Shown: positions 5,906-54,495, counted from the stretch's first letter. The stretch is DNA of 64,000 nt from an uncultured Alphaproteobacteria bacterium (GCA_963771845.1 CAVYVC010000043.1:19693-83692), one strand, 5' to 3'. Notes: generated from the sequence alone by a model not told the origin. Numbers and translations: made by a program.

Positions 5906-6874
5906 CTACTTCCTCAGTCCGGCGGCTTCGGCAGCGGCCGCCCATGTGATCATTCCGCGCGCAATCAATTGGGCAAACTCCTCGGGCGAGCCGTCGAGCG
6001 GCTCGAACCCCGACACCGCGAGCTTGGCGACCACGTTCTCTGACTTGAGCGCAGCGTTGGCGGCGACAGCGAGCGTCTCGATCACTGCGCGCGGTGTGCC
6101 GGCGGGTGCCATCAGGCCGAACCAGACCGTGCACTCGAAACCGGGCAGTAAGACCTCCGCGATGGTCGGGATATTCGGCGCAATGCGCGGGCGCTTGGCC
6201 GAACACGAGGCAAGCGCTGTGAGGCGGCCGACTTCGACGTGCGGCATGACCGTCGAAGCTACGGCCAACACCATTGACAGTCGGCCAGCAACCAGGTCGG
6301 TGACCTGCGGCGGGCTGCCCGGATACGGCACGTGAACGAGCTTGATGTTCGTGCGCACGCTGATCAATTCCATGGCGAGATGCCCGACCGTGCCTGGCCC
6401 AACCGACCCGTAGGTAAGTTCACCAGGCTTGGATTTCGCGAGCGCGATGAGTTCATCGACGCTCGACACGCCGAGCGAAGGATGTACCGCAAGGATGAGC
6501 GGCAGGCCGGTGAGCGGCGCGATCGGGGCGAAATCCCTGGCGAAGTCAAAGTGCAGATTGGAGCTGGTGACGGCATTGGTGACGTTCGATAACGTGCCAA
6601 TGAACAGGGTGTAGCCGTCCGCCGGGGAACGCGCGACGAATTCGGCGGCGATGCTTGAGCCGGCGCCCGGCCTCGCTTCCACGACCACCTGCTGGCCGAG
6701 CGTCCTGCTCATGGCATCGCCGACCAGCCGTGCGGTGATGTCGGCCGCCGACCCCGGCGGGAAGCCGATGATCAGTCGAATAGGCCGCGATGGATAGTTG
6801 TCGGCGTTCCCCTTCGGGACGGCGGCAAAAGTGGTCATCGCCAGGGTCAAGGCCAAAAAGGCAAAACGTTGCAC
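5906..6874 (-). CDS. Bug-family (TctC-like) substrate-binding protein
   Basis: GTG start at 6874 preceded by GGGAGG. Signal peptide QRFAFLALTLAMTTFAAV followed by YPSRPIRLIIGFPPGSAADI. Confidence 0.85.
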   Translation of the reverse strand: MQRFAFLALTLAMTTFAAVPKGNADNYPSRPIRLIIGFPPGSAADITARLVGDAMSRTLGQQVVVEARPGAGSSIAAEFVARSPADGYTLFIGTLSNVTNAVTSSNLHFDFARDFAPIAPLTGLPLILAVHPSLGVSSVDELIALAKSKPGELTYGSVGPGTVGHLAMELISVRTNIKLVHVPYPGSPPQVTDLVAGRLSMVLAVASTVMPHVEVGRLTALASCSAKRPRIAPNIPTIAEVLLPGFECTVWFGLMAPAGTPRAVIETLAVAANAALKSENVVAKLAVSGFEPLDGSPEEFAQLIARGMITWAAAAEAAGLRK

Positions 6875-7273
6875 GGCGGTCCTCCCTTGGATGCGGCTTT
6901 TGTTGTCCAACAAACCGGTTGCCGCAAACCAGTTGCGTTCGCTTCGCCAGTCTAGCTTACGATGAGGCTGAAGTGATTGCGCTGCCTTGCCGCACCGGGC
7001 GAAATGACACGACGGTATGTCTGCAATGCGAGGAGTAGCGGCCGACGGTTTTGCAGTGCGGTAATCTCGGGTATTGACCCAACTCGGACATAAGCAGCGC
7101 AAAATGGTGCATTGCGCTCTCGCCTGCACGCCTTCTGACCCCGGTCCAAGCCCCCTCTCAACGTCGGGACGGGTGTGGTACCCTTTCGCTGCGCTGGCAC
7201 GGTTCTGAGCGTCGTGGGATGGCTTCATGAGAGGGCGGTCACTCGTCACGTCGATTGCGCTGGTGGCGTGGCA

Positions 7274-10200
7274 ATGAAAGCTCGGCACCCCAGGACGACG
7301 AAGCCGAAACGCCGCAAGGAGCCGACGGCTGCGCGTCGCTACGCTCCCTCGGCGGTCAATCTCCAAAAGCAACTCGACCAGCGAACCCGCGAGCTTGCCG
7401 AGGCGCAAAAGAACCTGGCTGAGGCGCACGAGCAGCAGACGGCAACCTCCGAGGTGCTGCACGTAATTTCAAGCTCGCCCAGCGAGCTAGAACCGATCTT
7501 CCGGGCCGTGCTGGAGAACGCGACGCGCCTCTGCGAGGCCAAGTTCGGCACGCTGTACCTCCGCGACGCAGATGGCTTCCGCGCGGTTGCTACGCACAAT
7601 GCCCCGCCCGCCTATGTCGAGGCACGACGCGACCCACTGCTCCGACCGCCGCCGGACGCGCCCCTCGGACGTGTGGCCATTACGAAGCAGGTGGTCCACA
7701 TCGTCGATATCAAAACGACACGATCCTATATTGAGCGCCATCCATGGCTCCTCGCCGACGACCTTGCTGGCTATCGGACCATCCTCGCTGTGCCGATGCT
7801 CAAGGAAAGCGAGCTGATCGGCGCCATCATCATCTTTCGCCAGGAGGTTCGCCCGTTCAGCGACAAGCAGATCGAACTGGTCCAAAAACTTCGCCGCCCA
7901 GGCAGTGATCGCCATAGAGAACGCGCGCCTGCTCAACGAGCTGCGCCAGCGCACGGCCGATCTGACCGAGGCGTTGGAACAGCAGACGGCGACCTCCGAG
8001 GTGCTGCAGGTGATCTCCAGCTCGCCGGGCGAGCTTGCGCCGGTGTTCGAAGCCATGCTGGCGAATGCAGTGCGGCTCTGCGAGGCCAAATTCGGCGTAT
8101 TGAACTTGCATGAGGATGGGACCCTGCGCATGGGTGCCATGCACAACGTACCACCGGCCTTTGCCCAATTTCTGCAAGCCCGAGCTGGCGGATATCAACC
8201 AATTCCAGGCAGCCTGATCGATCGCGTTATACGAGCAAAGCAAGTGGGCCACACGGCCGATGAATCCGGCGGCAGAGCGGCAACACTCGGTGGGGCGCGA
8301 TCTATCGTTTCTGTGCCAATGCTCAAAGACGATGCGCTGATTGGCACGATCACAGTCTACCGGCAGGAAGTCCGTCCGTTCACCGACAAGCAGGTCGAGC
8401 TGGTCAAGAACTTCGCTGCCCAAGCGGTCATCGCCATCGAGAATACGCGCCTGCTCAATGAACTGCGCCAGCGCACCGACGATCTATCGAATCCCTGCAG
8501 CAGCAGACCGCCACCGCTGACGTGCTCAAGGTCATCAGCCGCTCGACCTTCGATCTGCAGGCCGTGCTCGATACGCTGGTGCAATCGGCGGCGCGGCTGT
8601 GCGAGGCCGATAGCGCGGCCATCCACCGCCCGCGCGGCGATGCCTATCCTTATGTGGCGAGCTACGGATACTCGGCCGAATACGACCAGTACATGCGCGA
8701 CCATCCGATGAAGCCGAGCCGGGGGTCCGTGCTTTGGCGTACAGCACAACAAGGCAGAATTGTCCATGTTGCCGATGTGCAGACCGATCCCGATTTTGCC
8801 GATTCGGATCTCGCCGAGCAGAGGAAAATAGGAGGCGCTGTTACGGTGCTCGGCGTCCCATTGCTGCGGGAAGGCATGCCGATCGGCGTGATTATACTGT
8901 CGCGATTCCAAGCGCGCCCATTCACCGATAAGCAGATCGAGCTCGCCACCACCTTCGCCGACCAGGCGGTGATCGCGATCGAGAACGTGCGGCTGTTCGA
9001 AGCCGAGCAGCAACGCACGCGTGAGCTGACCAAATCGCTGGAACAGCAGACTGCGACCGCCGAGGTCCTGCGCGTCATCTCAAGCTCGCCCGGTGAGTTG
9101 GAGCCGGTGTTCTCCGCAATGCTGCAGAACGCCCTGCGGCTTTGCGAGGCCGAATTCGGGAATTTGCTCCGATATGCGAATAAAGCCTTCCACGCCGCTT
9201 CATTCGTCAACACACCGACAGCCTTCGAGGCTTTTATCCGACAGGGTCCGGTTCAGCCAGCCCCCGGAAGCGGTCTCGCACGCATTGTCCGAACTAAGCA
9301 AACCGCGCATGTCCATGATGTCAGAGAGCTAGAAGCCTATGCAAATCGCGATCCATTCGTGGTCGCTGGCGCTGAGGCAGGCATCCGAACTCTCTTGCTC
9401 GTCCCGATGCTCAAGGAGAATGAGCTGGTCGGCATCATCGGCATCTACCGCCTCGAGGTTCGTCCCTTCACGAACAAGCAGATCGAGCTGGTCACTAACT
9501 TCGCCGCGCAGGCCGTGATCGCCATCGAGAACACACGACTGCTCAATGAGCTGCGCGAATCGCTGCGGCAGCAGACCGCGACCTCGGAGGTCCTGCAGGT
9601 CATCAGCTCGTCGCCGGGCGAATTGGAGCCGGTATTCCAGGCGATGCTGAGGAACGCAACCCGCATCTGCGACGCCAAGTTCGGCACGCTGCATCGATAC
9701 GACGGCGAATTGTTCCACCGCGTCGCCCGCACCGGTACGCCGGCTGCACTTGTTGAATTCCAGAAGGAGCGCGGCCCCTTCAAGCCGGATGCGACCGGGC
9801 TCCTCGGTCGCGTCTTGCGGGATCGAGCAGTAGTCCACGTCGCCGATGAGTTGGCAGAACCAAACCCGGGCCCTGCTGCCAAGTATGGTGGCGCGCGTAC
9901 CGTTATCGCGGTTCCGATGCTGAAGGAGCAAGAACTGGTCGGCGCTATCGTGATCTACCGTCAGGAAGTGCGACCGTTCACCGACAAGCAGATCGAGCTG
10001 GTACAGAACTTCGCGGCGCCGGCCGTCATCGCCGTGGAGAACACTCGCCTGCTCAACGAATTGCGCGAATCGCTGCAGCAGCAAACCGCGACTGCCGACG
10101 TGCTCAAGGTCATCAGCCGCTCAACCTTCGATCTGCGAGCAGTGCTTACTACTCTCGTCGAGTCGGCAGGGCGGCTCTGCCAAGCAGACAGAGCAGCAAT

Positions 10201-11361
10201 CAGGCTCGCGAGGGGTGGTTCCTACTACCAACTCGGAAGCTACGGTTTCTCGGCTGAACAAGATGAGTTCATGGAACGTCATCCGTTACAGCCGGATCGC
10301 GGATCGGCCACCGGGCGCGTGCTCGAGGGCAAGACTGTTCACGTCGTGGATACGCAGAGCGATCCGGAATACACACTTACACACAGAACCGAGTTCGCGG
10401 ATGTACGCACTGTCCTCGGCGTGCCGTTGCTGCGTGAAGGGATTCCCATTGGTGTACTAATCCTAACTCGGCAGACCGTGCGGCCGTTCACCGACAAGCA
10501 GATCGAGCTGGTCCAGACTTTGCCGACCAGGCGGTGATCGCCATCGAGAACGTCCGCCTGTTCGACGAAATCCAGGACAAGAGCCGCCAGTTGGCAGCGG
10601 CGAGCCAGCACAAGTCGCAGTTCCTTGCCAACATGAGCCACGAGCTGCGCACGCCCCTCAACGCCATCATCGGGGTGAGCGAGATGCTGCGGGAGGATGC
10701 GGAAGCATTGCAGCAGGACGTGGAGCCGCTCGATCGCGTGCTCGGCGCCGGCCGGCATCTGCTGGCCTTGATCAACGACATTCTCGACCTGTCCAAGATC
10801 GAGGCCGGGCGGATGGAGCTGCAGCTCGATTCCTTCGCTCTTGCACCGCTGATCGACGGTGTCATCAAGACGATCGAACCGCTGGCGGCGAAGAATGGGA
10901 ACCAGGTTGTGGCCCATTGCGACGCCGCGATCGGGACGATGCATGCTGACCAGATGCGTCTGCGGCAGGCCCTGCTCAATCTCATGAGCAATGCCAACAA
11001 ATTCACTGAGAAAGGCACCATCACCATCGCCGCTCTGCAAGCACAGGAGAACGGTCGCGATTGGGTCACGCTCGCCGTGACCGACACTGGCATCGGCATG
11101 ACACCGGAGCAGATGGGCAAACTGTTCCAGGAGTTTTCGCAGGCCTCCTCCACCACGGCGAGCAAATACGGCGGCACCGGCCTTGGTCTCGTGATCAGCC
11201 GCCGATTTTGTCAGATGATGGGTGGCGACATCACCGTCGAGAGCGAGGTCGATCGCGGCTCGACCTTCACGATCCGACTCCCGAGAATTGTGGACGCTCC
11301 GAAGGATGTGGTTGCTACCGATCCCGCCCACACAGTGGAGGCGACGCTAAAACACCACTAG
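7274..11361 (+). pseudogene. cytoplasmic sensor histidine kinase with six tandem GAF modules, interrupted by three 1-nt frameshifts
   Basis: Four overlapping ORFs (frames 2,0,2,1) read through one continuous protein. Six ~175-aa modules each start at QQTAT[SA][ED]VL.VIS and end at [16 protein letters not shown]. HisKA ([12 protein letters not shown]) and HATPase_c (GTGLGL) follow. Frame breaks occur near 7884-7888, 8486-8492 and 10516-10522. Confidence 0.8.
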
Positions 11362-16577: not shown

Positions 16578-17978
16578 TCAAATCGCCGGCAGCGTTATCG
16601 GGCAAAGCTCCTCGAAGGCGCGCGCGACGCGCAGCACAATATCCTCCTGATACTTTGCGGCGACGACCTGCATCCCGACCGGCAGGCCGGCGGACGTGAA
16701 GCCACAAGGAATTGAGGCTGCGGGCTGTTGGGTGAGATTGAATGGGAAGCTGAAAGGCGTCCAGTGCGTCCAGTTTGTTTGATCGGTTCCTTGCGGCGCC
16801 AAATGGCCCGTTTCGAACGCCGGTATCGGCAACGTCGGAGTGAGCAGAACATCGAATTCACCGTAAAAACGGGCCATGCGCAGCCCGAGATCGGCCCGCG
16901 CGTTCACGCAGCGAACGTATTCCATGTGGTCGATGGCCTCGCCGAGCGATGCGATCCGATCGAAGCCCGGATCGAGCAGAGCCCATTTCTCGCGCGCTAT
17001 TGCAGAACGAATGCTTGCCGCGCCGCTAAACCAAAGCACATTGAATAGTTCAATCGGGTCGGCAAAGCCCGGATCACGCCGCTGCACGATCGCGCCCGCC
17101 TCCACGAGCTTTTCCGCTGCCGATTCGACGAGCGCGCGAATTTCCGGATCAACGCTTGCGTAGCCGAGATCAAGGCTCAGCGCCATGCGTAAACCGCGCA
17201 CGCCTTGTTTGATCCCGATCGTAAAATCACGCGGCTGGTGCGGGAGCGAATACCAATCGCGATGGTCCGGTCGCGCGATCACGGTGAGCATGCGCGCGGC
17301 GTCCTCGACCGATGCCGTTATAGGACCGAGATGGGCGATGGTTCCAAACGGGCTCAGTGGATAAGCCGGCACCAGGCCGAACGTCGGCTTTATTCCGAAT
17401 ACGCCGGTAAAACCGCAAGGAATGCGGATAGAACCGCCACCGTCGGTTCCAAGATGCAGGCAGCCCATGCGCAAGGCCGCTGCAACCGCTGCGCCCCCGC
17501 TCGAACCGCCCGAGGTCCGGCGTTCGTCCCACGGGTTGCGGGTGATACCAGTCAACGGCGAATCGCAGATCGCCTTCCATCCGAATTCGGGCGTCGTCGT
17601 CTTGCCGAGCAGCACGGCGCCTGCTTCTCGCAGGCGCGCGACCGCAGGCGCATCCTCGCTCCAATCGTGCGCGGGATCGATTGTCTGCGAACCACGCAGT
17701 GTCGGCCAGCTATTGGTGAGAATGACGTCCTTGATGGTGGTGGAGACACCGTCGATATAGCTCAGGGGTTCTCCCTTGCGCCAACGCATCTCCGCCCCGC
17801 GCGCGGCATCCATGGCGCGTTCATCGTCGATCAGGCAAAACGCGTTATAGCGGGAGTTCAATTTGTCGATCCGGTCGAGCGCTGCGCGCGCCGCTTCAAC
17901 CGGAGAGGCCGCGCCAGTGCGGAAGAGGTGCACGAGCTCGCTTGCCGTCATCGATCCCAGATCATGCGCCACCGGCAT
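16578..17978 (-). CDS. amidase-signature family amidase
   Basis: 466 aa with the GGSSGGAAVAAA amidase signature. ATGA overlap with the upstream dehydrogenase gene. Confidence 0.9.
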   Translation of the reverse strand: MPVAHDLGSMTASELVHLFRTGAASPVEAARAALDRIDKLNSRYNAFCLIDDERAMDAARGAEMRWRKGEPLSYIDGVSTTIKDVILTNSWPTLRGSQTIDPAHDWSEDAPAVARLREAGAVLLGKTTTPEFGWKAICDSPLTGITRNPWDERRTSGGSSGGAAVAAALRMGCLHLGTDGGGSIRIPCGFTGVFGIKPTFGLVPAYPLSPFGTIAHLGPITASVEDAARMLTVIARPDHRDWYSLPHQPRDFTIGIKQGVRGLRMALSLDLGYASVDPEIRALVESAAEKLVEAGAIVQRRDPGFADPIELFNVLWFSGAASIRSAIAREKWALLDPGFDRIASLGEAIDHMEYVRCVNARADLGLRMARFYGEFDVLLTPTLPIPAFETGHLAPQGTDQTNWTHWTPFSFPFNLTQQPAASIPCGFTSAGLPVGMQVVAAKYQEDIVLRVARAFEELCPITLPAI

Positions 17979-18937
17979 CAGTATTGCTTCTCCAGATCGA
18001 CGACGTTTTTGAGCGGCTGTCCGCGAGAAAAGGCTTCATAATTGGCGATAAAATGCGGAACGACTTCCTCCGCCACTAACGGTCCGCAAACATGCGGAGT
18101 GATGGTGACATGGGGATTGGACCAGAAAGGGTGATCGGCCGGCAGCGGCTCGGTCGTGAACACATCCAGCGTGGCATGGGCAACGACGTTTGCGCCAATG
18201 GCGCTCAGGAGGGCATGCTCATCGATGAGGGCGCCCCTGCCGATATTGATGAGGTGCATTCCGCGCCGGCAGTGGGTGAAGATATCCGCCCCAAACAGAC
18301 GCTTGGTCTCCTTTGTCAACGGCAATACCAGAACGAGCACGTCGCAGAGGCCGACAAATTGCGGCAACGCATCCTCGCCGGTGAATAGCTCATCAACAGC
18401 AGATGAAGGAGCCGGTGATCGGCGCCAGCCAAGCGTACGAGCGGCGCGACTGCGCAGCGTATCGGCCACGACGGAGCCGATCTCGCCCAGACCAGCGATG
18501 CCAATGGTGAGATTTCTGATCGTGTCGATCTCAAAGAACTCCCAAATGCGTTGCTGTTGCTGTCTTCGCGCTCTATCAAACCGCAATGTTTTATCGAGAA
18601 TGGCGCCGAGCACATATTCGGCCATGCGGGGCGCGATCAATCTGCCGTCGGTACGGGTCAAAAGGACATCGCGGCCGAACGGCCATCTTTCGATGATCTC
18701 ATCGACGCCTGCTCCGATCTTCTGTACCCACCGCAGGCTCGGCATCTGCTCCAGCATTTCCGGCGGGAAACCCCATCCATAAAGAACGGCAGTGCTCTCG
18801 AAATAGCGCGCCGCCTCCTCGGGAGTGCTCGCAGAATAGATTGGGATATCGGGCAGCGCGCGAACGAGCAGGCGCTCGAATCGAGGAAGATCTGAATCAT
18901 AGATCGAATAAAGCAGGATCGGGCCCGGTGGTGTCAT
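17978..18937 (-). CDS. D-2-hydroxyacid dehydrogenase family (glyoxylate/hydroxypyruvate reductase-like)
   Basis: Rossmann motif IGIAGLGEIGSVVA and catalytic-region pattern (NIGRG...D). 319 aa. Confidence 0.85.
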   Translation of the reverse strand: MTPPGPILLYSIYDSDLPRFERLLVRALPDIPIYSASTPEEAARYFESTAVLYGWGFPPEMLEQMPSLRWVQKIGAGVDEIIERWPFGRDVLLTRTDGRLIAPRMAEYVLGAILDKTLRFDRARRQQQQRIWEFFEIDTIRNLTIGIAGLGEIGSVVADTLRSRAARTLGWRRSPAPSSAVDELFTGEDALPQFVGLCDVLVLVLPLTKETKRLFGADIFTHCRRGMHLINIGRGALIDEHALLSAIGANVVAHATLDVFTTEPLPADHPFWSNPHVTITPHVCGPLVAEEVVPHFIANYEAFSRGQPLKNVVDLEKQY

Positions 18938-19151
18938 ACCAGGACTTTGCGAGTGCTAGGAAAGGCCGATCCTTCGCACCACGGTGAGCAGGCGATCCGT
19001 GTCCGCGATGAGAAACGCGCACCTGGCCCAGATGGGCGTGAGCATTTGCCCCAACTGTACCATGAACGCGGGCCGCGGTTCTTGCGCGAAGCACGAAAAA
19101 GGGTACGAAAAAGGGTATTGACTACGAAACGAAGCTGTGGTAAGAAAGCCT

Positions 19152-19198
19152 ATCCTCTACAACTACGTGGCCCGGCTGGTGCACCGCGCCGGGTTTTT
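19152..19198 (+). ncRNA. candidate small RNA, copy A (CUAUCCUC seed plus intrinsic terminator)
   Basis: TTGACT (19118-19123), 17-nt spacer, TAAGAA (19141-19146). Then ~20 nt unpaired (cctatcctctacaactacgtgg), a GC hairpin cccggc...gccggg (19171-19193) and TTTTT. A paralogous copy lies at 48354-48408 on the minus strand. Confidence 0.4.
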
Positions 19199-19256
19199 CG
19201 TTGGGACGGGCGCAGGCGTGACCGCGTCATGACGTGTGATCACACGTTCCGCGCAC

Positions 19257-19392
19257 CTCCTGTTCTTGTCTGTTGTTCTCCTGATATGGCCCTGTTATTC
19301 CCCCTGTTCTCGTTCTGATAGCTTCTTGGCGACTCCGTATTTTACGGGCACTTCTTACGCGCCGGCCTGTATTTTCCCTGTTATTTACAATG
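19257..19392 (+). repeat. CTGTT-phased repeat element, copy A
   Basis: CTGTT/CTGAT/CTGTA occur at 19260, 19270, 19281, 19292, 19304, 19367 and 19378, with 10-12 bp spacing inside each cluster. The element aligns with the reverse complement of 47925-48058, including a perfect 24-nt match tattttccctgttatttacaatg. Confidence 0.65.
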
Positions 19393-19397
19393 GAGTG

Positions 19398-19473
19398 CAT
19401 GTTGGAGTGCACCCCGAAAATGAGACACAAAAACAAGAAAGGGGTGCACTCCAGCAGTGGTCGCTGGGGTTTT
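19398..19473 (+). ncRNA. candidate structured RNA downstream of the TACAAT box
   Basis: TACAAT at 19386-19391. Perfect 12-bp stem ggagtgcacccc/ggggtgcactcc (19404-19415 / 19441-19452) with a 25-nt A-rich loop. A second hairpin ccagc...gctgg and a T-run end at 19473. Confidence 0.25.
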
Positions 19474-19598
19474 CCCGGCAAACGCACTCGAATAGAGCGC
19501 ATGGCAGGCCCCCGCGCGGAAGCGAAGCCGCGGCGAGATCGGCCGGAATGCTTGGGAGGAGGGCTCGACAGCCGCGATGTGCGGGCTATGAGCCGTTG

Positions 19599-19814
19599 CT
19601 ATTCGAGATGACCTAGGTTCGACGCAGCTCGTCGGTTGCGTCGGGCCGGCGTGCTCAAACGGAGCGCCGAGCTTTGAACCTTAGCGATGTCGGCACACTG
19701 CACCCATCTCTCCGCCATTTGACTCCATGTGGCCCGGCTCGCCGGATCGCGGGTCAGCTTTGCCATTTGCTTGCATTCGGCTGCATGCTTTAGGAATTCC
19801 TCGGGCGGATACAT
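19599..19814 (-). CDS. small conserved hypothetical protein
   Basis: 71 aa starting MYPPEEFLKHAAECKQMAK...WSQMAERW. From memory, this resembles a small-protein family common in Rhizobiales. Confidence 0.55.
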   Translation of the reverse strand: MYPPEEFLKHAAECKQMAKLTRDPASRATWSQMAERWVQCADIAKVQSSALRLSTPARRNRRAASNLGHLE

Positions 19815-45566: not shown

Positions 45567-47702
45567 TTGAGCGAAGCAAGTTCTCGCGCGGCAAAGCCGC
45601 CGGAGCACTGCTCGTGGGCAAAGCTCGGCACTCTTTTTCTGGTGCTGGCCGCCCTCGGCCTGCCCATCAATGGTCTTGTTAATTACGCGCTCCTCGTCTT
45701 CGCCACCGTCATTGTTTGCTTTGGCTCAATTTCGCGGCGCCGGCTTGCATGGTTCGCGGCCGTGCTGGCAGTTGTGGTCTGCGCCATTGGGCAAACCTAC
45801 TTGCGCGCTCCCCGGATCGAGGAAGGCCATAATATCTTTCTGGTAGACGGCCCCGGCGGTGCGCTCGAAGCCGGATTGCCGCACGCGGCTTTCCAGGCCA
45901 TGGCCGCGGAGTTCGATGCCAGGTATCCCCCGCAACGCCGCTGCAGCCCCGCCGTCTACGGTTGCTGGCGTGGTGACGGTTTTCCGCGCGAGCCGTACGC
46001 TTTCTCTGCCGACGGCATCTTCGAATGGCCCGCGCAATCGCGGCGCGTAAGCGACATAGCATTCGCCGATCCAATGTGGCTTCGCCTCGGTTTCATTAAC
46101 GAGATTGGATACAACTGGAATTCCCTCGTCAGCGATGTCGAGCGTGCCGCACGCAACAGTGGTTTTTGGGCATTCCAGCACCGCTGGCGCCTCGAAATGC
46201 CGTGGTTCGTCATGTATCGCTTTCCCGCAGATTACGCCGGCAGCGAGCTCTGTTGGCGTGGCGAGGTGCTGTGGGAACACGCGAGCGAGCAGTTCGAGCT
46301 TGTCTCGCATTCTTCCATGCAATGTCGGGTGCTGAGAGATGAAGATGCCGGGCGGCGAATCTTCGGCGTCGCCATCAGGCAGGAGCCGCCGCTCGCCATG
46401 GAGCTTCGGCCGACCGGCAAGATCAGGACTGCTCAACTGTTGGAGCGGGCAACAGGTATTGTCGCCGTCGGGGTGGTGCTGGCTGCGCTTGCGCGCTGGC
46501 GAGCGCGCCGTACTGCAATCGCGCTCGGACTCATTTCGCTCACGCTCATCGTTGTCTTCCTCAATGATGCGAGCTTCATCGGCGGAGTACGGCCGTTCAA
46601 TTCCGGCGATGACGGCCTCGTTTATGACGGTTTGGCCCGCGAGATGTTGCGGCAACTCGTGCAGGGCAACATCAGCGCGGCGTTGGAGGGCGGAGAGAAG
46701 GTGTTCTATTTCACGCCCGGCATGCGATATCTGCGTGTGGCCGAGCACGTGGTCTTTGGCGAGACTTATCTCGGTTATCTCTCCTTGATCCTCCTGCTGC
46801 CCTTCCTGGTGCTCGCGATGTTCCGGCGCTTTTTGCCGGCGGAATTGGCGCTCGCGCTGACGTTCGTGTTCGTTGCCATACCCGTGGGCGTGCTGTTCGG
46901 GTCGAGCCTCGTGCAATACGTCAAATGGGCGTCCCGCGGCTTCGCTGATCCCGCTGCCTATATTCTCTTTCTCGCAGGTTTTGTTCTGCTTGTCGGCCGC
47001 AATGCAGACGGTCCGCAGAACGGCTTCGCGGTAGCAAGCGCCGCGGGGCTGTTGTTTGCGCTTGCGCTGTTCGTGCGGCCGAACATTGCTCCGGCCGCGG
47101 GCGTCCTTCTCGGCGCAAGCGGTGTAGCGGCGCTATGGCAACGGCAATATCGGCGTGTGGCAGGTCTGATGATCGGTTTTGTGCCGGTGCTGGGAATGGC
47201 ATTCCATAACTGGTTCTATGGCGGTGCTTTTGTGCTGTTCACCGCAACCGCCGCGCATCCTGGCGCGCTGGTCATGCCGCCGTCAGCTTATCTCGCCGCC
47301 GCAGGCGAGCTCGCCCATTTCCATCTTCACGGTGAGCATGTCGTCGCGGCGCTGCATCAGCTCGGCGGCTGGCTCGCCGGGCCATCGGAATCCGTTTTCA
47401 TGGCGCCGCTCAATGCCGCGGCACTCGTGATCGTGGCGCGGATGGCGTTATGGAACAGGATCGACCCGTGGCTGCGCCTGACCGCATGGGCAACGCTCGC
47501 CCAGCAATGTGTGGGCATCTTCTACGCGACCGCGGGGCGTTATTATTACCTCACCTGGCTGCTCACATTGCTGGTGACGGCGGTCTGGGTCGAGCGCGAA
47601 GGGCTCGAACTCATGCGGCGCCGCTATCCGAGGGTTGCCCATCGGTTCGCGAACTATCCCGGACGCCGGATGGTTGGCCGGATATTGCAGCAGATCGGGT
47701 AG
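45567..47702 (+). CDS. large polytopic membrane protein, possibly a GT-C-fold glycosyltransferase
   Basis: 711 aa with more than 10 predicted TM helices and a ~270-aa soluble loop. The SGDDG motif after a TM helix resembles GT-C first-loop acidic motifs. The functional call is weak. Confidence 0.55.
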   Translation: MSEASSRAAKPPEHCSWAKLGTLFLVLAALGLPINGLVNYALLVFATVIVCFGSISRRRLAWFAAVLAVVVCAIGQTYLRAPRIEEGHNIFLVDGPGGALEAGLPHAAFQAMAAEFDARYPPQRRCSPAVYGCWRGDGFPREPYAFSADGIFEWPAQSRRVSDIAFADPMWLRLGFINEIGYNWNSLVSDVERAARNSGFWAFQHRWRLEMPWFVMYRFPADYAGSELCWRGEVLWEHASEQFELVSHSSMQCRVLRDEDAGRRIFGVAIRQEPPLAMELRPTGKIRTAQLLERATGIVAVGVVLAALARWRARRTAIALGLISLTLIVVFLNDASFIGGVRPFNSGDDGLVYDGLAREMLRQLVQGNISAALEGGEKVFYFTPGMRYLRVAEHVVFGETYLGYLSLILLLPFLVLAMFRRFLPAELALALTFVFVAIPVGVLFGSSLVQYVKWASRGFADPAAYILFLAGFVLLVGRNADGPQNGFAVASAAGLLFALALFVRPNIAPAAGVLLGASGVAALWQRQYRRVAGLMIGFVPVLGMAFHNWFYGGAFVLFTATAAHPGALVMPPSAYLAAAGELAHFHLHGEHVVAALHQLGGWLAGPSESVFMAPLNAAALVIVARMALWNRIDPWLRLTAWATLAQQCVGIFYATAGRYYYLTWLLTLLVTAVWVEREGLELMRRRYPRVAHRFANYPGRRMVGRILQQIG

Positions 47703-47924
47703 CAGACGACGGCGTACGAATTCGCGGCCGGGAGGCCGGCGCGCAATTCTTGGCGTTAGCCAATCCTTCGGAATGACAACCTAATCACCCGTTGGGTTCG
47801 TTTTGCCGGTTGGCAAACGCCAAAGATGATTGCGTTGCTATTGTTTGACATTGCGCAGTTGTCGAAAGCTATGCATTCGGTGCAGGGCGCAAACGCTCCG
47901 TGTGGCCATGCCGACGCCTCGTTC

Positions 47925-48058
47925 ATTGTAAATAACAGGGAAAATACAATGGGGCGCGCAAGAAGCGCCCGTAAAACGCGGACTTGCCAAAAAAAGAACA
48001 GAGGCGGGAACAGCGCGATTGCGGCAATAACAGAGGAATAACAGGCAAGCCACAGGAG
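47925..48058 (-). repeat. CTGTT-phased repeat element, copy B (inverted relative to copy A)
   Basis: The reverse complement aligns with 19257-19392. AACAG (= CTGTT on the minus strand) occurs at 47934, 47997, 48009, 48029, 48040 and 48051, with spacings of 11-12 or ~20 bp. Confidence 0.65.
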
Positions 48059-48353
48059 ATTCCAAGCCGGCCCGCTGCCATTTTGATCTCCAAAAATTGC
48101 ATGGCTTGCTTCCAGTGTTTGGAGACTGCGACGCTGCGACGATAGCGTAATCTTCTGACCATACGTGTCGCGCAAGCGCTATGTGCAGGAGCCTCACAGA
48201 TAACTCGTTAATTGACAAGGCATTTCACCTGTTGGGTTCGTTTGGTAGTTTGGTAAGTTTGGTAAAATCGGCCCTCGCGGAGTTGTGTTCCTTCATTGAA
48301 ACAACGCGCAGATGCAAGCTCGCAACTGCGACGCAGGCTGAGATGCGCGCATG

Positions 48354-48408
48354 AAAAAACCCGGCACGCTGTGCGTCCGGGCCTCACATACTTTTGGAGG
48401 ATAGTATT
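48354..48408 (-). ncRNA. candidate small RNA, copy B
   Basis: The minus strand reads actatcctccaaaagtatgtgagg, then hairpin cccggacgc-aca-gcgtgccggg, then TTTTTT. A possible promoter is CTTGCG-N18-TAGTAA. It shares CTATCCTC and the terminator architecture with 19152-19198. Confidence 0.4.
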
Positions 48409-48623
48409 TTTTACTATCAGAAATGTTTCCTAAACGCAAGTAACGTTTTGTTGCAGTGACGCTAGCGAGGCTTCGCAAGGAGCAGCGGAGCAGCGAAAGG
48501 ACACGCGACAACACCAGCTTATATCGTGAATGGAGTATTCGGTAAGGATAGACCTGTTGGCAGGAGGACCGGGCTTCCCCTATAGGTCTCTCCCGTAAAA
48601 TCCCACCCGAAGGAGAAACCCAA

Positions 48624-49142
48624 ATGGCATATTCGTTGTACGACGCGGCTGTAACCACCTGCGCCCAGCAGCTTGGCGCACTGGTCGGCATCATCGACAA
48701 GGCCGCCGCACATTGTGCCACCAACAAGATTGAGGAATCGGCTCTGCTGCAGGACCGATTGTATCCCGACATGTTCTGCCTCGCCCGCCAGATCCGTCAG
48801 TCAGCGGATTTCGCCATGAACACCGGCGGTCGCCTGGCTGGCGTTACTCCCCCCGCCATGCCGGCTGTGGACGACACCAGCTTCGCCGCCGCCAAAAGCC
48901 GCGTCGAAACCGCCCTAACCTTCGTGAAGTCCCTGACGCGCGCACAGGTCGACGGCGCGGAGGGCAAGGTTATCGCCTGGACCGGCGGCGGCAACGACCG
49001 GAAAATGAAGGGCAACGACTATCTGCAACAGTTCGCCTTGCCGAATTTCTTCTTCTTTGTAACGACGGCATACAACATCCTGCGTCATCGCGGCGTACCG
49101 CTCGGAAAGCGGGAATTCCTCGGCCCGGTCAACTGGCTCTAA
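48624..49142 (+). CDS. DUF1993 domain protein
   Basis: 172 aa with LPNFFFFVTTAYNILRHRGVPLGKREFLG at the C-terminus and SLYDAAV at the N-terminus, typical of DUF1993. GGAG RBS. Confidence 0.85.
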   Translation: MAYSLYDAAVTTCAQQLGALVGIIDKAAAHCATNKIEESALLQDRLYPDMFCLARQIRQSADFAMNTGGRLAGVTPPAMPAVDDTSFAAAKSRVETALTFVKSLTRAQVDGAEGKVIAWTGGGNDRKMKGNDYLQQFALPNFFFFVTTAYNILRHRGVPLGKREFLGPVNWL

Positions 49143-49351
49143 AGGCCCGTTAGGTGATACCGGCGGCGTCCCGGAAGTGGATCGTTGACCCATTCGCTGC
49201 GAAGTCGGCCATCGTGCTCCATTCGTGCGAGCGCGACATACAAAGGATCACTCCACAATCCCGTCGCCTTTGCCAACTCGGCACCCGACAGTCCGTCTTT
49301 AGGTGCAGCCTTGAGCGCGTCTAGGATCCTGTCCTCGTGCGCGGCGGTCAC
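49139..49351 (-). CDS. small PadR-like winged-helix protein
   Basis: 70 aa with LSGAELAKATG...LYVALARMEHDGRLRSEW...RRRYHLT, resembling the PadR recognition helix and wing. Confidence 0.55.
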   Translation of the reverse strand: MTAAHEDRILDALKAAPKDGLSGAELAKATGLWSDPLYVALARMEHDGRLRSEWVNDPLPGRRRYHLTGL

Positions 49352-49688
49352 GGCTCGGTTTCTCCCTTGTAAGCTGCTATGTAAGCGCGGCCCCTTTTAG
49401 TCAAAACGTAAAAGAACTCAGACTTCATGACCGCACTCCATGGCCCCGTGCCACGACTGGAGCTGTTTGAAACGAGATCGCTCGGCAACTGACAGCCGCC
49501 CGGCATCCGCGGCATTGATGAGGACGCGCGCAGCGGCGCATCATTGTTAGCGCCTGTGCATGCTGCAAGGCGTCCATGCACTGTGATCGGCCGACCCCGG
49601 GCCGAGCGCTGATAGATGACTGCATTCCCTCCAGTCCCTCTGGTACGAAGGGCCGAAAAGGTCAGCCGTCTACTACGTACGCGCGTTC

Positions 49689-50693
49689 TCATCGGTTGTC
49701 GCCGGAACGTGGGGCCGGAACGACGTCGCCATCCGGAGTCAGACCCTTCAGAAATTTGAAGAGATCACTGCCCGTGGAAAGGACAAGGGTCGTGTTTTCG
49801 GCGATGATGGACTTGTAGGACTGCATGGTCCGTGTGAATTCATAGAACGCCACCGCTTCAGGGCTCTGATTGTAAGCCCCCGCGTAGATTTCGGTGGCTT
49901 TCGCGTCCGCCGCGCCGCGGATCTCCTCGACCTGCCGGTAGGCTTCAGACTGGATCTTATTCAAGTCGCGCACACGATTGCCGCGGATTCTGGCGGCCTC
50001 GCCGTTACCTTCCGACAGAAAGCGTTCCGCGATCTGCCGCCGTTCGCTGATCATTCGATCGTAGATCTTCGGGCGCACGCTTTCATTGTAGTTGATCCGC
50101 TTGAACCGGATATCGAGCAATTCGATACCAAACACTCGAACCTTCTCGGCAGCCTCGGCAAAGATCTCTTGCTCAACCAGTTTGCGTCCCTTCTGGATCG
50201 GCACCAGTCTCCCCACATCCAGCTCCCGTCCCGCGTCCGTCACGAGAGTGTCGCGCAGCGGCACGCGATCCTTGGTGGTGCGGATGATCTCGATCAGCTC
50301 ATGCTTGGCGACGGCATTACGGGTCTCGCTGCCTAGAACATCGTCCAGGCGGGACTGAGCACTGCGTTCATCGTGCAGCCGCAGAAAGTACTGGAGAGGA
50401 TCTACGATCCGCCAGCGGGCGAAGAGGTCGACCGAGACGTAGAGCTTGTCCTTGGTTGGCATATCGGACGGACTGCCGTCCCACTCGAGAACTCGCTTGT
50501 CGATCAGGTTGACGTCCTGGATGAAGGGCACCTTGACCTTCAGACCGGCGGTAGTCACGGGAGCGCCGACAGGCTTGCCGAACTGAGTGATAATCGCTTG
50601 CTCGACTTCGCTCACCGTATAGATCGAACTCATCAAAACGTACGTCCCGATGCCCAAAACCGCTAAGATAGCTAGTAGCTTGATCCTATTCAT
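49689..50693 (-). CDS. hflC: protease modulator HflC (SPFH/band-7)
   Basis: N-terminal TM helix, then YTVSEVEQAIITQFGKPVG and an SPFH domain. 4-nt overlap with hflK. Confidence 0.9.
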   Translation of the reverse strand: MNRIKLLAILAVLGIGTYVLMSSIYTVSEVEQAIITQFGKPVGAPVTTAGLKVKVPFIQDVNLIDKRVLEWDGSPSDMPTKDKLYVSVDLFARWRIVDPLQYFLRLHDERSAQSRLDDVLGSETRNAVAKHELIEIIRTTKDRVPLRDTLVTDAGRELDVGRLVPIQKGRKLVEQEIFAEAAEKVRVFGIELLDIRFKRINYNESVRPKIYDRMISERRQIAERFLSEGNGEAARIRGNRVRDLNKIQSEAYRQVEEIRGAADAKATEIYAGAYNQSPEAVAFYEFTRTMQSYKSIIAENTTLVLSTGSDLFKFLKGLTPDGDVVPAPRSGDNR

Positions 50694-51748
50694 GGCCGTT
50701 CTCCCTTCTGGGAGTCGAGATTCAGTAATGGCAGAATGCTGCGCGTCTGTTCGTCGACAATGATCTTGGAGCGTATGCCCGGCATGACATCCTGCAGGGT
50801 CTCGATGTAGATGCGGCGGCGGGTAACCACTGGGGCCTTGATGTATTCCGCCAATAACGCGCTGAACCGAGCAACATCGCCTTCTGCTTCATTGATCCTC
50901 TTGAGCCGGTAGCCGTCGGCTTCCCGGATCCGCTGATCCTTCTCGCCCTCGGCCAGCGGGATCACCTTGTTGTAATCGCGCCGGGCTTCGTTGATCAGCT
51001 TCTCTTTCTCCTGCTGGGCCTGGTTGACCTCGTTGAATGACCCCTGCACCGGTTCGGGCGGATTGATGTTCTTCAATTGCACCTGATCGATGCTGATCCC
51101 CATGGCATATTTGGTCGAGAGCGCCTGCATCTTGGTCAGCGCTTCCGTTTCGATCTCCTGTCGGCCGATGGTAATCACCTCGTCCACGGTGCGATCACCG
51201 ACAACTTCCCGCATTACGGATTCCGAAACATCGCGGAGGGTTGCCCTCGGTTCCCGAACGTCGAAAAGGAATTTAACGGGATCCGAAATGCGGTATTGAA
51301 CCACCCATTCCACCAATGCGGCGTTCAGGTCACCCGTCACCATCTGCGTTTCCCGCTTTCCGTCGCGAGAAGTCTGATACGGATCGGTGGCGCCTGGAGT
51401 CGCGAACCCGAATTCCTGCTTCAACTGCCGTTTGTCGGGAACGATTGTCGCGACATCAATACCCAGCGGCAGCTTGAAATGCAGTCCCGGTGGAACGTCC
51501 TTGAGATACTTACCAAAACGTTGCACGACAGCAACAGAGTCGCTCGGCACAGTGAAATAGGCGGTCCATGCGCCTAGGCCGACCAGAGCGAGGGCGGCAA
51601 GGACGATTACTAGGCGCGGGCCACCGCTCGGCATGATCTGCTTGAGTCGATCCCGCCCCTGCTGGACCAGAACCTCAATATCGGAACCGGGTTTGACCCC
51701 GCTACCCCAGGGGCCGCTACGGCCGCCGTTGCCGTTCTGCGGTGGCAT
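50690..51748 (-). CDS. hflK: FtsH protease activity modulator HflK (SPFH/band-7)
   Basis: Gly-rich N-terminus, a TM helix, then FTVPSDSVAVVQRFGKY and an SPFH domain. Confidence 0.9.
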   Translation of the reverse strand: MPPQNGNGGRSGPWGSGVKPGSDIEVLVQQGRDRLKQIMPSGGPRLVIVLAALALVGLGAWTAYFTVPSDSVAVVQRFGKYLKDVPPGLHFKLPLGIDVATIVPDKRQLKQEFGFATPGATDPYQTSRDGKRETQMVTGDLNAALVEWVVQYRISDPVKFLFDVREPRATLRDVSESVMREVVGDRTVDEVITIGRQEIETEALTKMQALSTKYAMGISIDQVQLKNINPPEPVQGSFNEVNQAQQEKEKLINEARRDYNKVIPLAEGEKDQRIREADGYRLKRINEAEGDVARFSALLAEYIKAPVVTRRRIYIETLQDVMPGIRSKIIVDEQTRSILPLLNLDSQKGERP

Positions 51749-51954
51749 TTGAATGTCCTTTCTTGTGCACGCTTGAGGTCAGCTCAGTGTCTTTGCATCG
51801 CGCTGACTACCCTAACGCCCACGACGCAATCTTTTGCTCGCGCCGCGGGGCAGTTGTTTGCCCTGGACGAACTACCATCCCTTCGCCTTCCGTTCTTGCC
51901 CCCTGATTGCAGGATTGCAGATGGGCAGTTTTCCGTGAGAAGTGCTGCTACGCC

Positions 51955-51968
51955 TTGACGCAGATCAA
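51955..51968. promoter_or_regulatory. FNR/FixK-type box
   Basis: TTGACGCAGATCAA fits TTGA-N6-TCAA exactly. Its centre lies ~213 bp upstream of the hflK ATG. Confidence 0.45.
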
Positions 51969-52116
51969 TCCGGCGCTGTGCGGGTTGATGCCGGTCCCCG
52001 CCGGTCAGTTCATCTGTGAGTGCCTCACTACTGGCATCGAGAGCCGCTGCGCGCCCGCGCTGCGAGCGGCCACGCTGCAGCCGCGCCGCCAAGAAGCGTA
52101 ATGAACTCTCGCCTTC

Positions 52117-52606
52117 TCACTCGATCACCTCGTCGGCGCGCGCGAGCAGCGTCGGCGGCACCGTGAGGCCAAGCATGCGGGCGGTGCGATGGTTGATGAC
52201 GAACTCGAATTTCGCGGCCTGCACCACTGGCAAGTCTGCTGGCTTTTCACCCTTGAGGATGCGGCCGGCATAGACGCCGATTTGACGATACGCATCGGCA
52301 ATATTGGCACCGTAGCTCATCAGGCCGCCGACCGCGGCACATTCACGCAACGCATAGCTCGCGGGGACCCGGTGGAATGCGGCCAGCTGGGCCAATTGCA
52401 CGCGCCGGCCGTTCAGGTAGGGAGAGGCCTCGACGAACAAAGCATCGGGCCGATCGCGCCCGATCGTCTCGAACGCCGAATCGATCTCGTCTCCGGTGTC
52501 GGCGTTGAGAACCTGAACCTGTAGCCTCATGGCGCGGGCGCCGGTTTCCACGTTGCGCAATGTCGCCTCGGTATTTCTGGCATCGGTCGGATTGACGGTA
52601 CCTGCC
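52117..52606 (-). pseudogene. 5'-truncated ABC-transporter substrate-binding protein gene (PF04392-like)
   Basis: Only the C-terminal ~160 aa are present (...VNPTDARNTEAT...LQVQVLNADTGDEIDSAF...GLTVPPTLLARADEVIE). Homology stops at ~52606 next to a partial REP-like sequence. Confidence 0.7.
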
Positions 52607-52700
52607 TGCCCGGGTCATTCCAGGGGAACGCCTCAGTAACTTGCTGTCAGCAACACCAAGGTGCCGGAAAACTCCAGCATGATCATCCGAATGAAAGACA

Positions 52701-53417
52701 CTACGCGGGAGTGCTCTCATCCCCCGTTTTGATCGCAGGCTGGTCGTACAAAACCACGTTCAACAAGGAATTATGAACCTCGATTTTTCCGTTGTATTCG
52801 ATGAAACCCAATTTGCGGAATTTGTTCATGAAAAAGCTCACACGCGATCGGGTCGTGCCAATCATCTCCGCCAGCGTTTCCTGACTGAACGTTCCCACGA
52901 TCGGCTCCGGCTTGCCTTCCTTACCGAAATTTGCAAGCAAAAGGAGAAGTCGAGCAAGGCGCTTTTCGCTCGAATTAAATAATTGGTCGACTAAGTCCTC
53001 TTCTATTCGACTGTTACGAGACAACAGATACGACATGAACAGTTCAGAAAACTCTGGTTCATTATGAATGGTGGCGATCATGGTCACCTTCTCTATGCGG
53101 GTAACCACGCACTCATCCATCGTCTTCGTCGTAGCGATGCGCAGCGGATGGCCATTCAGACACCCTTCGCCAAAAAAATGCCCGGGGCCCAGGATTGCGA
53201 CTACGGCTTCCTTGCCTTGCTCGGAAACGACCGTGAGTTTGATCTTGCCGTGCTGGATGTAAAAAACCGCGTCCGCGACCTGTCCCTGTGAGAAGATAAT
53301 TTGATCCTTCCGATATTTGGATATTGTTTTTCCCTCGCCCACCTTGGCGAGAAACATTTTGGGATCAAACGAGGCTTTAACTCTCTTCCTCACTAAGGCT
53401 CCCTTTTGCTTTTTCAC
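52701..53417 (-). CDS. Crp/Fnr-family transcriptional regulator
   Basis: cNMP-binding beta-roll (IIFSQGQVADAVFYIQHGKIKLTVVSEQGKEAVVAILGPGHFFGEGCL) and C-terminal HTH (ETLAEMIGTTRSRVSFFMNKFRKLGFI). GTG start at 53417; an alternative ATG lies at 53357. Confidence 0.85.
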   Translation of the reverse strand: MKKQKGALVRKRVKASFDPKMFLAKVGEGKTISKYRKDQIIFSQGQVADAVFYIQHGKIKLTVVSEQGKEAVVAILGPGHFFGEGCLNGHPLRIATTKTMDECVVTRIEKVTMIATIHNEPEFSELFMSYLLSRNSRIEEDLVDQLFNSSEKRLARLLLLLANFGKEGKPEPIVGTFSQETLAEMIGTTRSRVSFFMNKFRKLGFIEYNGKIEVHNSLLNVVLYDQPAIKTGDESTPA

Positions 53418-53555
53418 AAGGGCTGCCCTTTCCCCCGACAAAGGCAGGGCGAGGCGGGGGATTATACCATTTCCACTGCGCAAATGAAGAACCGGCTTGT
53501 CCGTACCGTAGGTCACTACACAGCGGAAGATATTTCTCTCCGCCGAACGAGCGAA

Positions 53556-53780
53556 TTATCGCTTCTTTTTCTTCGCGAAAATCACGTTCCAGTTGTCCCT
53601 ATAAGCTTTAGAAACGGGTTTCTGGCCTTCGCCCCTACTATAGCCAGAAGGTGAGGCGGCAGCTAATTCTCCGCCGCCAGCCTTGGATGGCTCTGCGCCG
53701 GAAGTGCTGTTATTCTCCGGTGCGGCCTCATTTTCTGGAGCGGAGTTGGTTTTAATTTTCTTGTCGTCGCTGGCCATCAT
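53556..53780 (-). CDS. small hypothetical protein
   Basis: 74 aa with a low-complexity N-terminus and a basic tail KAYRDNWNVIFAKKKKR. Confidence 0.45.
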   Translation of the reverse strand: MMASDDKKIKTNSAPENEAAPENNSTSGAEPSKAGGGELAAASPSGYSRGEGQKPVSKAYRDNWNVIFAKKKKR

Positions 53781-53908
53781 CTTTCCTGACGCTTTGTCAA
53801 GACCGGGCTATCGCTGATCATCGTCGTACATATGTCCCCGCAACTTTGTGCCTAGCCAGAAGCGCCCCGGAAAACCGGGGCACTCCCAGATTTCAACCGG
53901 TCAGAAGG

Positions 53909-54380: not shown

Positions 54381-54495
54381 AGCATGACCTCTTTCGTTTG
54401 AGCGACATGCGAACGGTCCGCCCTCAGGGCCGAACCTTCCGTATCACGCAGCCTCATGGCCTGCGCGTTTCGTATTTGGGCGTGCTTCGAGGCCT

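Follow-up and report, generated by a model that had tools for sequence, protein, structure and literature searches.

What is the sequence that occurs twice, in opposite orientations, in a 64,000-nucleotide (nt) stretch of DNA from an uncultured Alphaproteobacteria bacterium (GCA_963771845.1, CAVYVC010000043.1:19693-83692; below, the window, with positions counted from its first letter), and what might it do? A first reading made from the sequence alone had picked out an element of about 135 bp with regularly spaced CTGTT pentamers at positions 19257 to 19392. We find that the element is real and non-random, and that it represents an apparently undescribed family of modular noncoding intergenic elements in soil Alphaproteobacteria. 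The family is marked by a near-invariant 26-nt core, CC-TGTATTTTCCCTGTTATTTACA-GG, whose central CCTGTTAT is reiterated in tandem three to six times, every ~11 nt, as the CTGTT boxes. Its members are modular and take at least two main forms, an array form, to which the window copies belong, and a leader form.

Two inverted copies in the window

Copy A (19257-19392, plus strand) aligns with the reverse complement of 47924-48060 (copy B, minus strand), which bears out the two inverted copies proposed by the sequence-only reading. The similarity starts at CTCCTGT and stops abruptly after a perfect block, TGTATTTTCCCTGTTATTTACAATG, which had been recognized before, although it is 25 nt long rather than 24 nt. 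A repeat finder returned arms at 19314-19392 and 47924-48002, 79 nt long and 81% complementary. A second block, TTTACGGGC[AG]CTTCTT[AG]CGCGCC, is common to both copies, and one strand of each is 69 to 70% pyrimidine with 10 to 11% A; both the block and the strand asymmetry had been described correctly. The 18-mer TTCCCTGTTATTTACAAT has two sites in the window, those in copies A and B (expected, 0.02), and a profile built from 14 family members likewise matched the window only there.

Exact CTGTT starts at five positions in copy A (19260, 19270, 19292, 19304, and 19378), and AACAG is found at five in copy B (47934, 47997, 48009, 48029, and 48040 in plus-strand coordinates). The coordinates of the earlier box list were right, but 19281 and 19367, like 19315, hold CTGAT or CTGTA variants, and 48051 reads CACAG instead of AACAG. 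Successive boxes are 10, 11, 11, 12, and 11 nt apart in copy A, variants included, and 11, 20, and 12 nt apart in copy B. Five CTGTT in 136 nt were reached in none of 5,000 dinucleotide-preserving shuffles of either copy (shuffle mean, 0.5 to 0.6), and the window as a whole averages 0.11 per strand in 135 nt.

In folding, copy A does not surpass its shuffles (z = +0.28). The central hairpin, GGGCGC-N7-GCGCCC, is, as noted previously, perfect in copy B and interrupted in copy A by one A.C pair, which is G.U on the other strand. The further suggestion that this hairpin is constrained as RNA did not hold up in the family, where 55% of the cells are paired (seven copies), with zero compensatory changes and no advantage over slid controls. 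In the core of copy B, CATTGTA...TACAATG is able to pair over 7 bp. The window variant of the core ends in ..ACAATG, and the commoner family form ends in ..ACAGG.

A modular family with array and leader forms

We scanned 241 million metagenome records with the core pattern TGTANNNNCCCTGTTATTTACA, which has 18 fixed and 4 free positions. The scan returned 110 loci; the 94 matches on contigs with a GC content of at least 0.5 correspond to 73 non-redundant matches and 67 unique 50-mers. The four free positions are TTTT in 50 of the 67 unique copies versus none of 17 low-GC chance matches, and the flanks are CC..GG in 52 of the 67 versus 1 of the 17. It is this conservation outside the fixed positions that shows the core to be near-invariant over 26 nt. 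On high-GC contigs from soil we count about 45 distinct contexts of the core, which sort into more than 20 unrelated clusters, none of them orthologous to the window loci. The CAT..ATG form seen in the window recurs at two loci (L088 and L115), where both flanks shift together, and short forms, CCTGTTATT(T/A)ACAGG, are present as extra copies at four (L103, L124, L034, and L059). A scan of GTDB genomes with the window variant TTCCCTGTTATTTACAAT gave 12 chance matches, in genomes that are unrelated and mostly AT-rich, and a metagenome scan with the 23-mer of the second block gave zero matches.

The array form comprises copies A and B and loci L031, L038, L039, L042, L045, L056, L057, L070, L080, L088, and L115. 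Three to six CCTGTTAT boxes, ~11 nt apart, are followed by a linker and the core, and each unit consists of a conserved part of 7 to 9 nt and a variable spacer of 2 to 4 nt. Successive exact CTGTT in the family arrays are 10 to 12 nt apart in 20 cases, 20 to 23 nt in 5, and 29 to 33 nt in 4; one gap of 43 nt, in L042, comes from an extra, probably chance, CTGTT. The ~11-nt phasing could have been a chance product of pyrimidine-rich sequence, to be recognized by its loss in other copies; 11 non-redundant relatives of the element in other organisms preserve it, with spacings of 10 to 12, 20 to 23, and 32 to 33 nt, and it is therefore a property of the family. The last array box lies 62 to 64 or 72 to 74 nt from the core box, across differing linkers. 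With the boxes masked, array and linker are still 65% pyrimidine and 12% A, versus 49% and 21% nearby. Array copies usually stand 20 to 280 nt past the stop of a convergent gene, and these genes are functionally unrelated. A colinear unit of ~700 nt is common to copy B, L070, L088, and L039.

Two further features were seen at array loci. A GC-rich repeat (..AGCCCGGATGAGCGAAGCGATATCCGGGAGCGAT..) is inserted in the conserved unit upstream of the boxes in L039 (~6130-6270) and L088 (~780-840). In L031, L066, L068, L110, and L125, a kdpE-like OmpR-family response-regulator gene and its kinase gene lie ~200 nt upstream of a U2 module (described below), and the array element comes directly after these two genes; this association may be a coincidence within a single locus family.

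The leader form is an 80-nt module found at ~19 distinct loci; one of them, L073, belongs to another alphaproteobacterium, closest among named relatives to metagenome-assembled genomes (MAGs) of Stellaceae. A first hairpin of the UUCUCU..GGAGAG type (hairpin 1) is joined by a linker containing AUACCACCGU to hairpin 2, in which a variable GC stem of 4 to 9 bp plus UGUA/UACA closes an invariant 14-nt loop, UUUUCCCUGUUAUU. The loop and each array unit contain an identical motif of 8 to 9 nt. In 14 leader sequences, 82% of the cells are paired versus 35 to 55% in slid controls, and seven pairs have compensatory changes. The covariation score of 0.214 (shuffles, 0.155 ± 0.021) was reached by 4 of 500 shuffles, and many pairs that are U.G on the sense strand are A.C on the opposite strand. 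The true structural signal of the family is the hairpin around the 25-nt block in the leader form, and not the central hairpin to which the sequence-only reading had pointed. Conserved patches in the leader recur every ~10 to 11 nt.

At least eight independent leader copies are located 40 to 220 nt upstream of a same-strand gene; these genes are phnW, an SBP gene, glpD, pccB, folD, cbiD, and genes for a helicase and a molybdopterin oxidoreductase. Three leader loci have an ambiguous or contrary orientation. At the phnW and SBP loci, a strong promoter, CTTGAAA-N17-TATATAT, lies ~115 nt upstream of the leader. Overlapping the strong promoter at phnW (L131 1160-1210, L089 2350-2400, and L114) there is a conserved palindrome, AGTCCGAA.AGGATAT...ATATCC.TATTGGA, which is probably the operator of a local phosphonate regulator.

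Boxes and core are surrounded by further modules (Table 1), so that the sequence-only reading had seen part of a larger modular unit and had neither the leader-form hairpin nor the signals that point to strand-specific transcription. A promoter-like module stands upstream, on the same strand, in every array locus with enough upstream sequence. The first type, U1, has at both window copies a sigma-70-like TTGAC/TTGCG-17 nt-TAnnAA, ~50 nt with an anti-Shine-Dalgarno-like CCUC(C), and an intrinsic terminator, on the same strand as the array. In copy A it would encode a ~50-nt candidate small RNA (CUAUCCUC...) with an intrinsic terminator stem at 19176-19192 and a T-run to 19198, and in copy B a candidate small RNA, also of ~50 nt, with a CCUCC loop and an intrinsic terminator; no Rfam family matched these candidates. 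U1 homologues occur in copies A and B, L070, L088, L038, and L119, and in L111 before a bare core. The second type, U2 (TTGACTCGTGTAACGAGAATCTT...UAUUCUCCAAA or TTGACTCGTGTAACGAGAATCTT...UAUUCUCCAAAUUUGCGC; L031, L042, L045, and L057), enters the boxes without a terminator. A sigma-70 scan found no promoter in either window region, and within the element a terminator-like match appears once, in copy B alone. In copy A, the small-RNA terminator is separated from the boxes by a stretch that includes a perfect 16-bp palindrome, ACGTGTGATCACACGT (19232-19247), which looks like an operator.

Module M4 (GGAGTGCACCCC-N5-TGAGACACGAAA), a 12-bp hairpin in copy A, follows the core in L038, L039, L045, L056, and L111 and precedes it, mirrored, in L025, L044, L102, and L123. 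It also occurs alone (L074 ~676 and L108 ~113), there followed by a GTTCTC..GAGAAC hairpin. A peptide encoded in M4 was considered and rejected on early stops and the lack of start codons. Copy B lies in a 440-nt unit bracketed by a 32-nt direct repeat (..AAACGAACCCAACRGGTGA..; 47785-47816 and 48225-48256), a motif also found near cores in L044, L056, L059, L070, and L102.

Table 1. Positions of the element and its adjoining modules in the window
Feature	Positions	Strand	Remarks
U1, copy A	19118-19199	+	Promoter-like TTGACT (19118-19123), 17 nt, TAAGAA (19141-19146)
Box array, copy A	19257-19320	+	CTGTT at 19260, 19270, 19292, 19304; CTGAT at 19281, 19315; period 10-12 nt
Linker block ATTTTACGGGCACTTCTTACGCGCC, copy A	19337-19363	+	Conserved in sequence, not as a hairpin
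Core, copy A	19366-19392	+	CC + TGTATTTTCCCTGTTATTTACA (19368-19389) + ATG; family consensus CC-22mer-GG
M4 adjoining copy A	19404-19452	+	GGAGTGCACCCC-N5-TGAGACAC..., closed by GGGGTGCACTCC (19441-19452)
U1, copy B	48353-48439	-	TTGCGT (48439-48434), 17 nt, TAGTAA (48416-48411); z = -2.7
M6, upstream copy (..AAACGAACCCAACAGGTGA)	48225-48256	-	Direct-repeat match
Pre-array block (AAAATGGCAGCGGGC..GGAATCTCC, 48085-48055) and box array, copy B	47995-48085	-	CTGTT at 48044, 48033, 48013, 48001
Linker block GTTTTACGGGCGCTTCTTGCGCGCC, copy B	47953-47979	-	With the following TGTATTTT, terminator-like score in copy B alone
Core, copy B	47924-47950	-	CAT + TGTATTTTCCCTGTTATTTACA (47948-47927) + ATG
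M5 and M6 (downstream copy, 47816-47785), after copy B	47758-47923	-	80% identical over 211 nt to L044, where M5 and M6 also follow the core

Possible roles of the element

We infer a function as RNA, with transcription from the pyrimidine-rich strand, and put at roughly 40% the probability that this is an RNA family in which CCUGUUAU would be a recognition motif and the array a multisite decoy or platform. This role is favored because the leader stems covary and contain U.G pairs, because leaders are oriented with promoters and genes, because same-strand promoter modules precede the array copies, because the array is strand asymmetric, poor in A, and unstructured, and because the loop and the array units carry the same motif. 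Folding of copy A at the level of its shuffles is what would be expected of an accessible single strand. In the leader form, in the 5' regions of mRNAs, CCUGUUAU would be presented in the 14-nt loop of a hairpin, and in the array form it would be repeated in an A-poor, unstructured stretch. One putative trans-acting factor, protein or RNA, might recognize it, and the array could bind several copies of this factor at once, which would make it a decoy or a platform for assembly comparable to CsrB and RsmZ. We regard as quite improbable the more specific proposal of a Csr-like titration circuit on a pyrimidine motif, in which array RNAs with five to seven motifs would sequester the putative factor of the leader loops, or, as its alternative, a hairpin-plus-iteron site for an HUH-type enzyme.

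Several observations weigh against a role as RNA. At the U1-type loci, the window copies included, an intrinsic terminator lies between promoter and boxes, and our scans found neither a promoter of the array's own nor a terminator after the core. The strict ~11-nt period and the two distances between array and core, corresponding to about six and seven helical turns, fit a DNA-binding array, and the phasing counts against an RNA decoy because a decoy has no need of it. The genes with leaders have no common functional theme, the presence or absence of the element between close relatives suits a mobile or dispensable repeat equally, and the fixing of 18 positions in the scan makes the invariance of the core partly a matter of ascertainment.

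The main rival, a role as duplex DNA along the lines of the sequence-only reading, is possible but somewhat unlikely. The boxes would then be helically phased CCTGTTAT sites for a winged-helix regulator (PhoB, ArcA, or OmpR) or for an iteron- or HUH-Rep-type protein, and the core, made up of an inverted half-site and two direct ones, would be the high-affinity site. Such an array gives the best account of the strict period and the two box-to-core distances, and both the spacings and these distances, over differing linkers, are near multiples of 10.5. The division of each unit into a conserved part and a spacer is in line with it, as are the regularly recurring patches of the leader, the 7+4 Pho-box layout of the core (CTGTATT-TTCC-CTGTTAT-TTAC), and the phosphorus-related neighbors phnW, SBP, and glpD. 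However, variable covarying GC stems with U.G pairs on one strand would make no sense for a duplex site, and the strand asymmetry extends beyond the boxes. No conserved -10 follows the array, which usually faces the 3' end of a convergent gene, and the neighbors are functionally unrelated. The near-invariant 26-nt site is far more constrained than usual regulator boxes, and there is no nearby rep gene and no plasmid or viral match. The linkers may themselves be homologous but diverged, in which case the two distance classes could be inherited and not selected.

Both copies are set among core chromosomal genes (hisE, coaA, dnaK, dnaJ, and the pyrF region), and other flanking genes have Pfam matches. 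The source is an uncultured, Xanthobacteraceae-like bacterium; its CoaA is 100% identical to an NCBI/ENA MAG protein, and the named relatives are Xanthobacteraceae MAGs. Copy A is intergenic between a 2-hydroxyacid dehydrogenase gene (17978-18937, minus strand) and a 71-codon gene (19599-19814, minus strand), which is followed by hisE and coaA. Copy B is intergenic between a 711-codon membrane-protein gene (45567-47702, plus strand) and a DUF1993 gene (48624-49142, plus strand). The copies, inverted, are 28.5 kb apart with housekeeping genes between them. Searches of the window found no tRNA, the copies are not flanked by direct att repeats and have no rep gene nearby, and none of the open reading frames (ORFs) tested encodes an integrase. 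A plasmid collection held no match to the element and only weak, chance-level matches to the core, and a viral scan gave two AT-rich chance matches only. The plasmid iterons and the integrase or Xis arm-type sites that the sequence-only reading had offered among its candidates find no support in such a setting.

Four other explanations were rejected. No GC-skew switch was seen, which speaks against a marker of origin/terminus polarity. Transposon ends would have to enclose the 28.5 kb of housekeeping genes toward which the sharp ends of copies A and B face. ORFs of 126 codons cross both copies; their shared part is the 29 residues encoded by conserved DNA, with no Pfam match, and the copies differ by single-base, non-triplet indels, so the element is not coding. 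A link to the 2-hydroxyacid dehydrogenase came down to paralogues only 30% identical.

The loci around both copies change between close relatives. Relatives with a CoaA 97% identical to that of the window keep the amidase, dehydrogenase, 71-codon, hisE, and coaA genes, with flanks 92 to 98% identical; in place of 18984-19477 (U1, boxes, core, and M4) they have ~190 nt of unrelated sequence, and the boundaries show no duplication. Copy B is absent in relatives whose 711-codon protein is 82 to 85% identical, and a different gene begins 60 bp past its stop. The element is thus gained or lost between close relatives, and that both window copies are missing at the same loci indicates rapid turnover. 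The phnW leader copy is found in L131 and L089, where protein identity is 88 to 93%, and is lacking at 83% and 74%. One side of L106 is identical to L065 and the opposite side to L038, and the switch falls within the element; either two copies have recombined here or the assembly is chimeric. Copy number looks modest: the 64-kb window has 2, and contigs of up to 15 kb usually have a single copy.

These changes would suit a selfish or neutral repeat that lacks a dedicated function in the host, be it a MITE- or REP-like nonautonomous element or a mosaic repeat prone to recombination; we consider this unlikely. Its hairpins would serve only its own mobility or the stability of mRNA 3' ends, and it would be compatible with either functional role. 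The element is multicopy and dispersed in unrelated intergenic contexts, often just past a convergent stop, and presence/absence polymorphism together with several dispersed copies is what is asked of a MITE. Its flanks are a modular mosaic, with M4 on either side of the core; the swapped block at copy A, the missing copy B, the patchy phnW leader, and the L106 junction point the same way, and REP-type repeats are known in 3' untranslated regions of Bradyrhizobium (PMC5082802). Against this, we see no clear terminal inverted repeats and no target-site duplication where copy A begins and ends; L038 ends in GGGGTGCACCTC.../...GGAGTGCACCCTC, and the other copies are without such ends. No transposase gene was seen nearby, the flanking genes being only partly annotated. 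The sole transposase link is a weak 21/23 match (E = 3) just upstream of the start of an IS630 transposase gene on Mesorhizobium plasmids; it was rejected and looks like an unrelated hairpin sequestering a Shine-Dalgarno sequence. The leader form is orientation biased, and 110 exact-core matches per 241 million metagenome records is a low number. The 26-nt core is kept across contigs with GC contents of 0.53 to 0.70, which points to selection exerted by a conserved partner.

We consider it very improbable that the inverted copies mark island borders as attachment or arm-type sites used by an integrative element, for although the core is common and its left and right flanks vary by locus like attL/attR/attP mosaics, and although the GC content falls from 0.62 to 0.56 directly right of copy B, where synteny with relatives stops, the copies are inverted and not direct, enclose hisE, coaA, dnaK, dnaJ, and pyrF, lack an integrase in the tested ORFs and a tRNA, and have a core found in dozens of contexts that include 5' leaders of ordinary genes.

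Other features of the window were recorded alongside. From 48000 to 64000 the GC content goes from ~0.62 to 0.55 to 0.58, coding is sparse, and synteny with relatives ends at 47702; the region from copy B rightward may be acquired or decaying. This region contains repeated ABC_sub_bind gene fragments (52115-52198 and 61189-61272) and a gene-poor stretch with a 44-nt inverted repeat (93%; 54748-54791 and 59257-59300, 4.5 kb apart) and a short repeat, GGGTGAGCAGTTTTATACAGACGC, at 54612-54635, 59951-59977, and 60217-60243. At 7335-10570, six tandem repeats of ~510 to 545 nt, 60 to 87% identical, run across the overlapping ORFs 7175-8113 and 8522-10537 and are probably reiterated sensor domains of a large signaling protein.

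If the role as RNA is correct, the element would be an uncatalogued regulatory RNA motif common to abundant, mostly uncultured soil Alphaproteobacteria, with an mRNA leader form and a multisite form that could titrate the same factor; circuits of this kind are undescribed in the group. If the role as duplex DNA is correct, the recognition sequence and an unusual multisite architecture of a DNA-binding protein would be defined. Whichever role applies, all copies can be searched for precisely by the 26-nt core, and the element marks fast-changing intergenic regions and probably causes breaks in assemblies or rearrangements of these genomes.

Relation to known systems

Like the sequence-only reading, our searches assigned the element to no known RNA or repeat family. 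Rfam 15 gave no window match at the gathering threshold and nothing relevant at E ≤ 10 in either intergenic region, and in 20 family loci it found only a tRNA and a Mn riboswitch, both elsewhere in the loci. In a literature search, the element's sequence strings were absent, and papers on Bradyrhizobium repeats and small RNAs cover other elements. Set beside the Csr/Rsm, Pho/ArcA, BOX/BIME, and pMV158 systems, it appears to have a likeness to each and full membership in none.

The palindromic repeats Br-REP1 (CCGGAATCTCGAGATTCCGG) and Br-REP2 (CGAGATTCCGGGTTCGGCTCTTCGAGCCGCCCCGGAATGA) of Bradyrhizobium japonicum have GC-rich stems and 50 to 200 copies per genome (Hahn et al. 2016, PMC5082802). 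They come from the same bacterial family and, like the present element, are palindromic and stand in intergenic regions or 3' untranslated regions between convergent genes. Their sequence is different, however, a tandem box array is found only here, and the core strings are absent from the supplements of PMC5082802. As with the Br-REPs, other palindromes flank the element, and its abundance differs between relatives. The pneumococcal BOX elements and the enterobacterial BIMEs or RIPs resemble it in having few module types in variable number and order, intergenic hairpins, and some protein-binding sites; their sequences and hosts are unrelated, and here the core is near-invariant across organisms and the copy number seems low. 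REP/RAYT repeats consist of a GC-rich palindrome of 20 to 40 bp with a GTAG or CGTC head, in tens to hundreds of copies. In contrast, the core described here is AT-rich, has a 14-nt loop, and lacks either head, and the 64-kb window contains 2 copies.

In the double-strand origin of rolling-circle plasmids of the pMV158 family, a hairpin with a conserved loop lies tens of base pairs from 11-bp direct repeats. The present element, unlike that origin, is chromosomal, occurs in many contexts, and has no rep gene and no plasmid or viral match. The consensus of the Pho box is CTGTCAT, which CTGTTAT matches at 6 of 7 positions, and TGTTA at 11 bp is the direct-repeat layout of ArcA. As in Pho boxes, 7-bp direct repeats with 4-bp spacers give an 11-bp period here; a conserved part of 5 to 7 bp, a spacer that varies, and differing numbers of units are likewise shared with Pho and ArcA arrays. 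The differences lie in the lack of a -10 at the expected distance, the position at 3' ends of convergent genes, the near-invariant 26-nt core, and the covarying hairpin flanks. The placement is also not that of Pho promoters, whose boxes take the place of the -35, ~10 bp upstream of a -10, before genes of phosphate starvation, and the neighbors, which besides phnW, an SBP gene, and glpD include pccB, folD, cbiD, a helicase gene, fabI, kpsF, and others, form no coherent regulon.

CsrB, RsmY, and RsmZ are decoy small RNAs for CsrA, which also binds mRNA leaders. To our knowledge, CsrA is generally absent from this lineage. The motif here is the pyrimidine-rich CCUGUUAU and not GGA, it is set in strict ~11-nt repeats and not in separate hairpins, and the array is known only with promoter-like same-strand modules and no pair of promoter and terminator. 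Two features of the Csr/Rsm decoys and their targets are nevertheless found in this family: a motif repeated 5 to 8 times in a stand-alone noncoding locus with little structure, and a single motif in the hairpin loop of the 5' leaders of unrelated genes.

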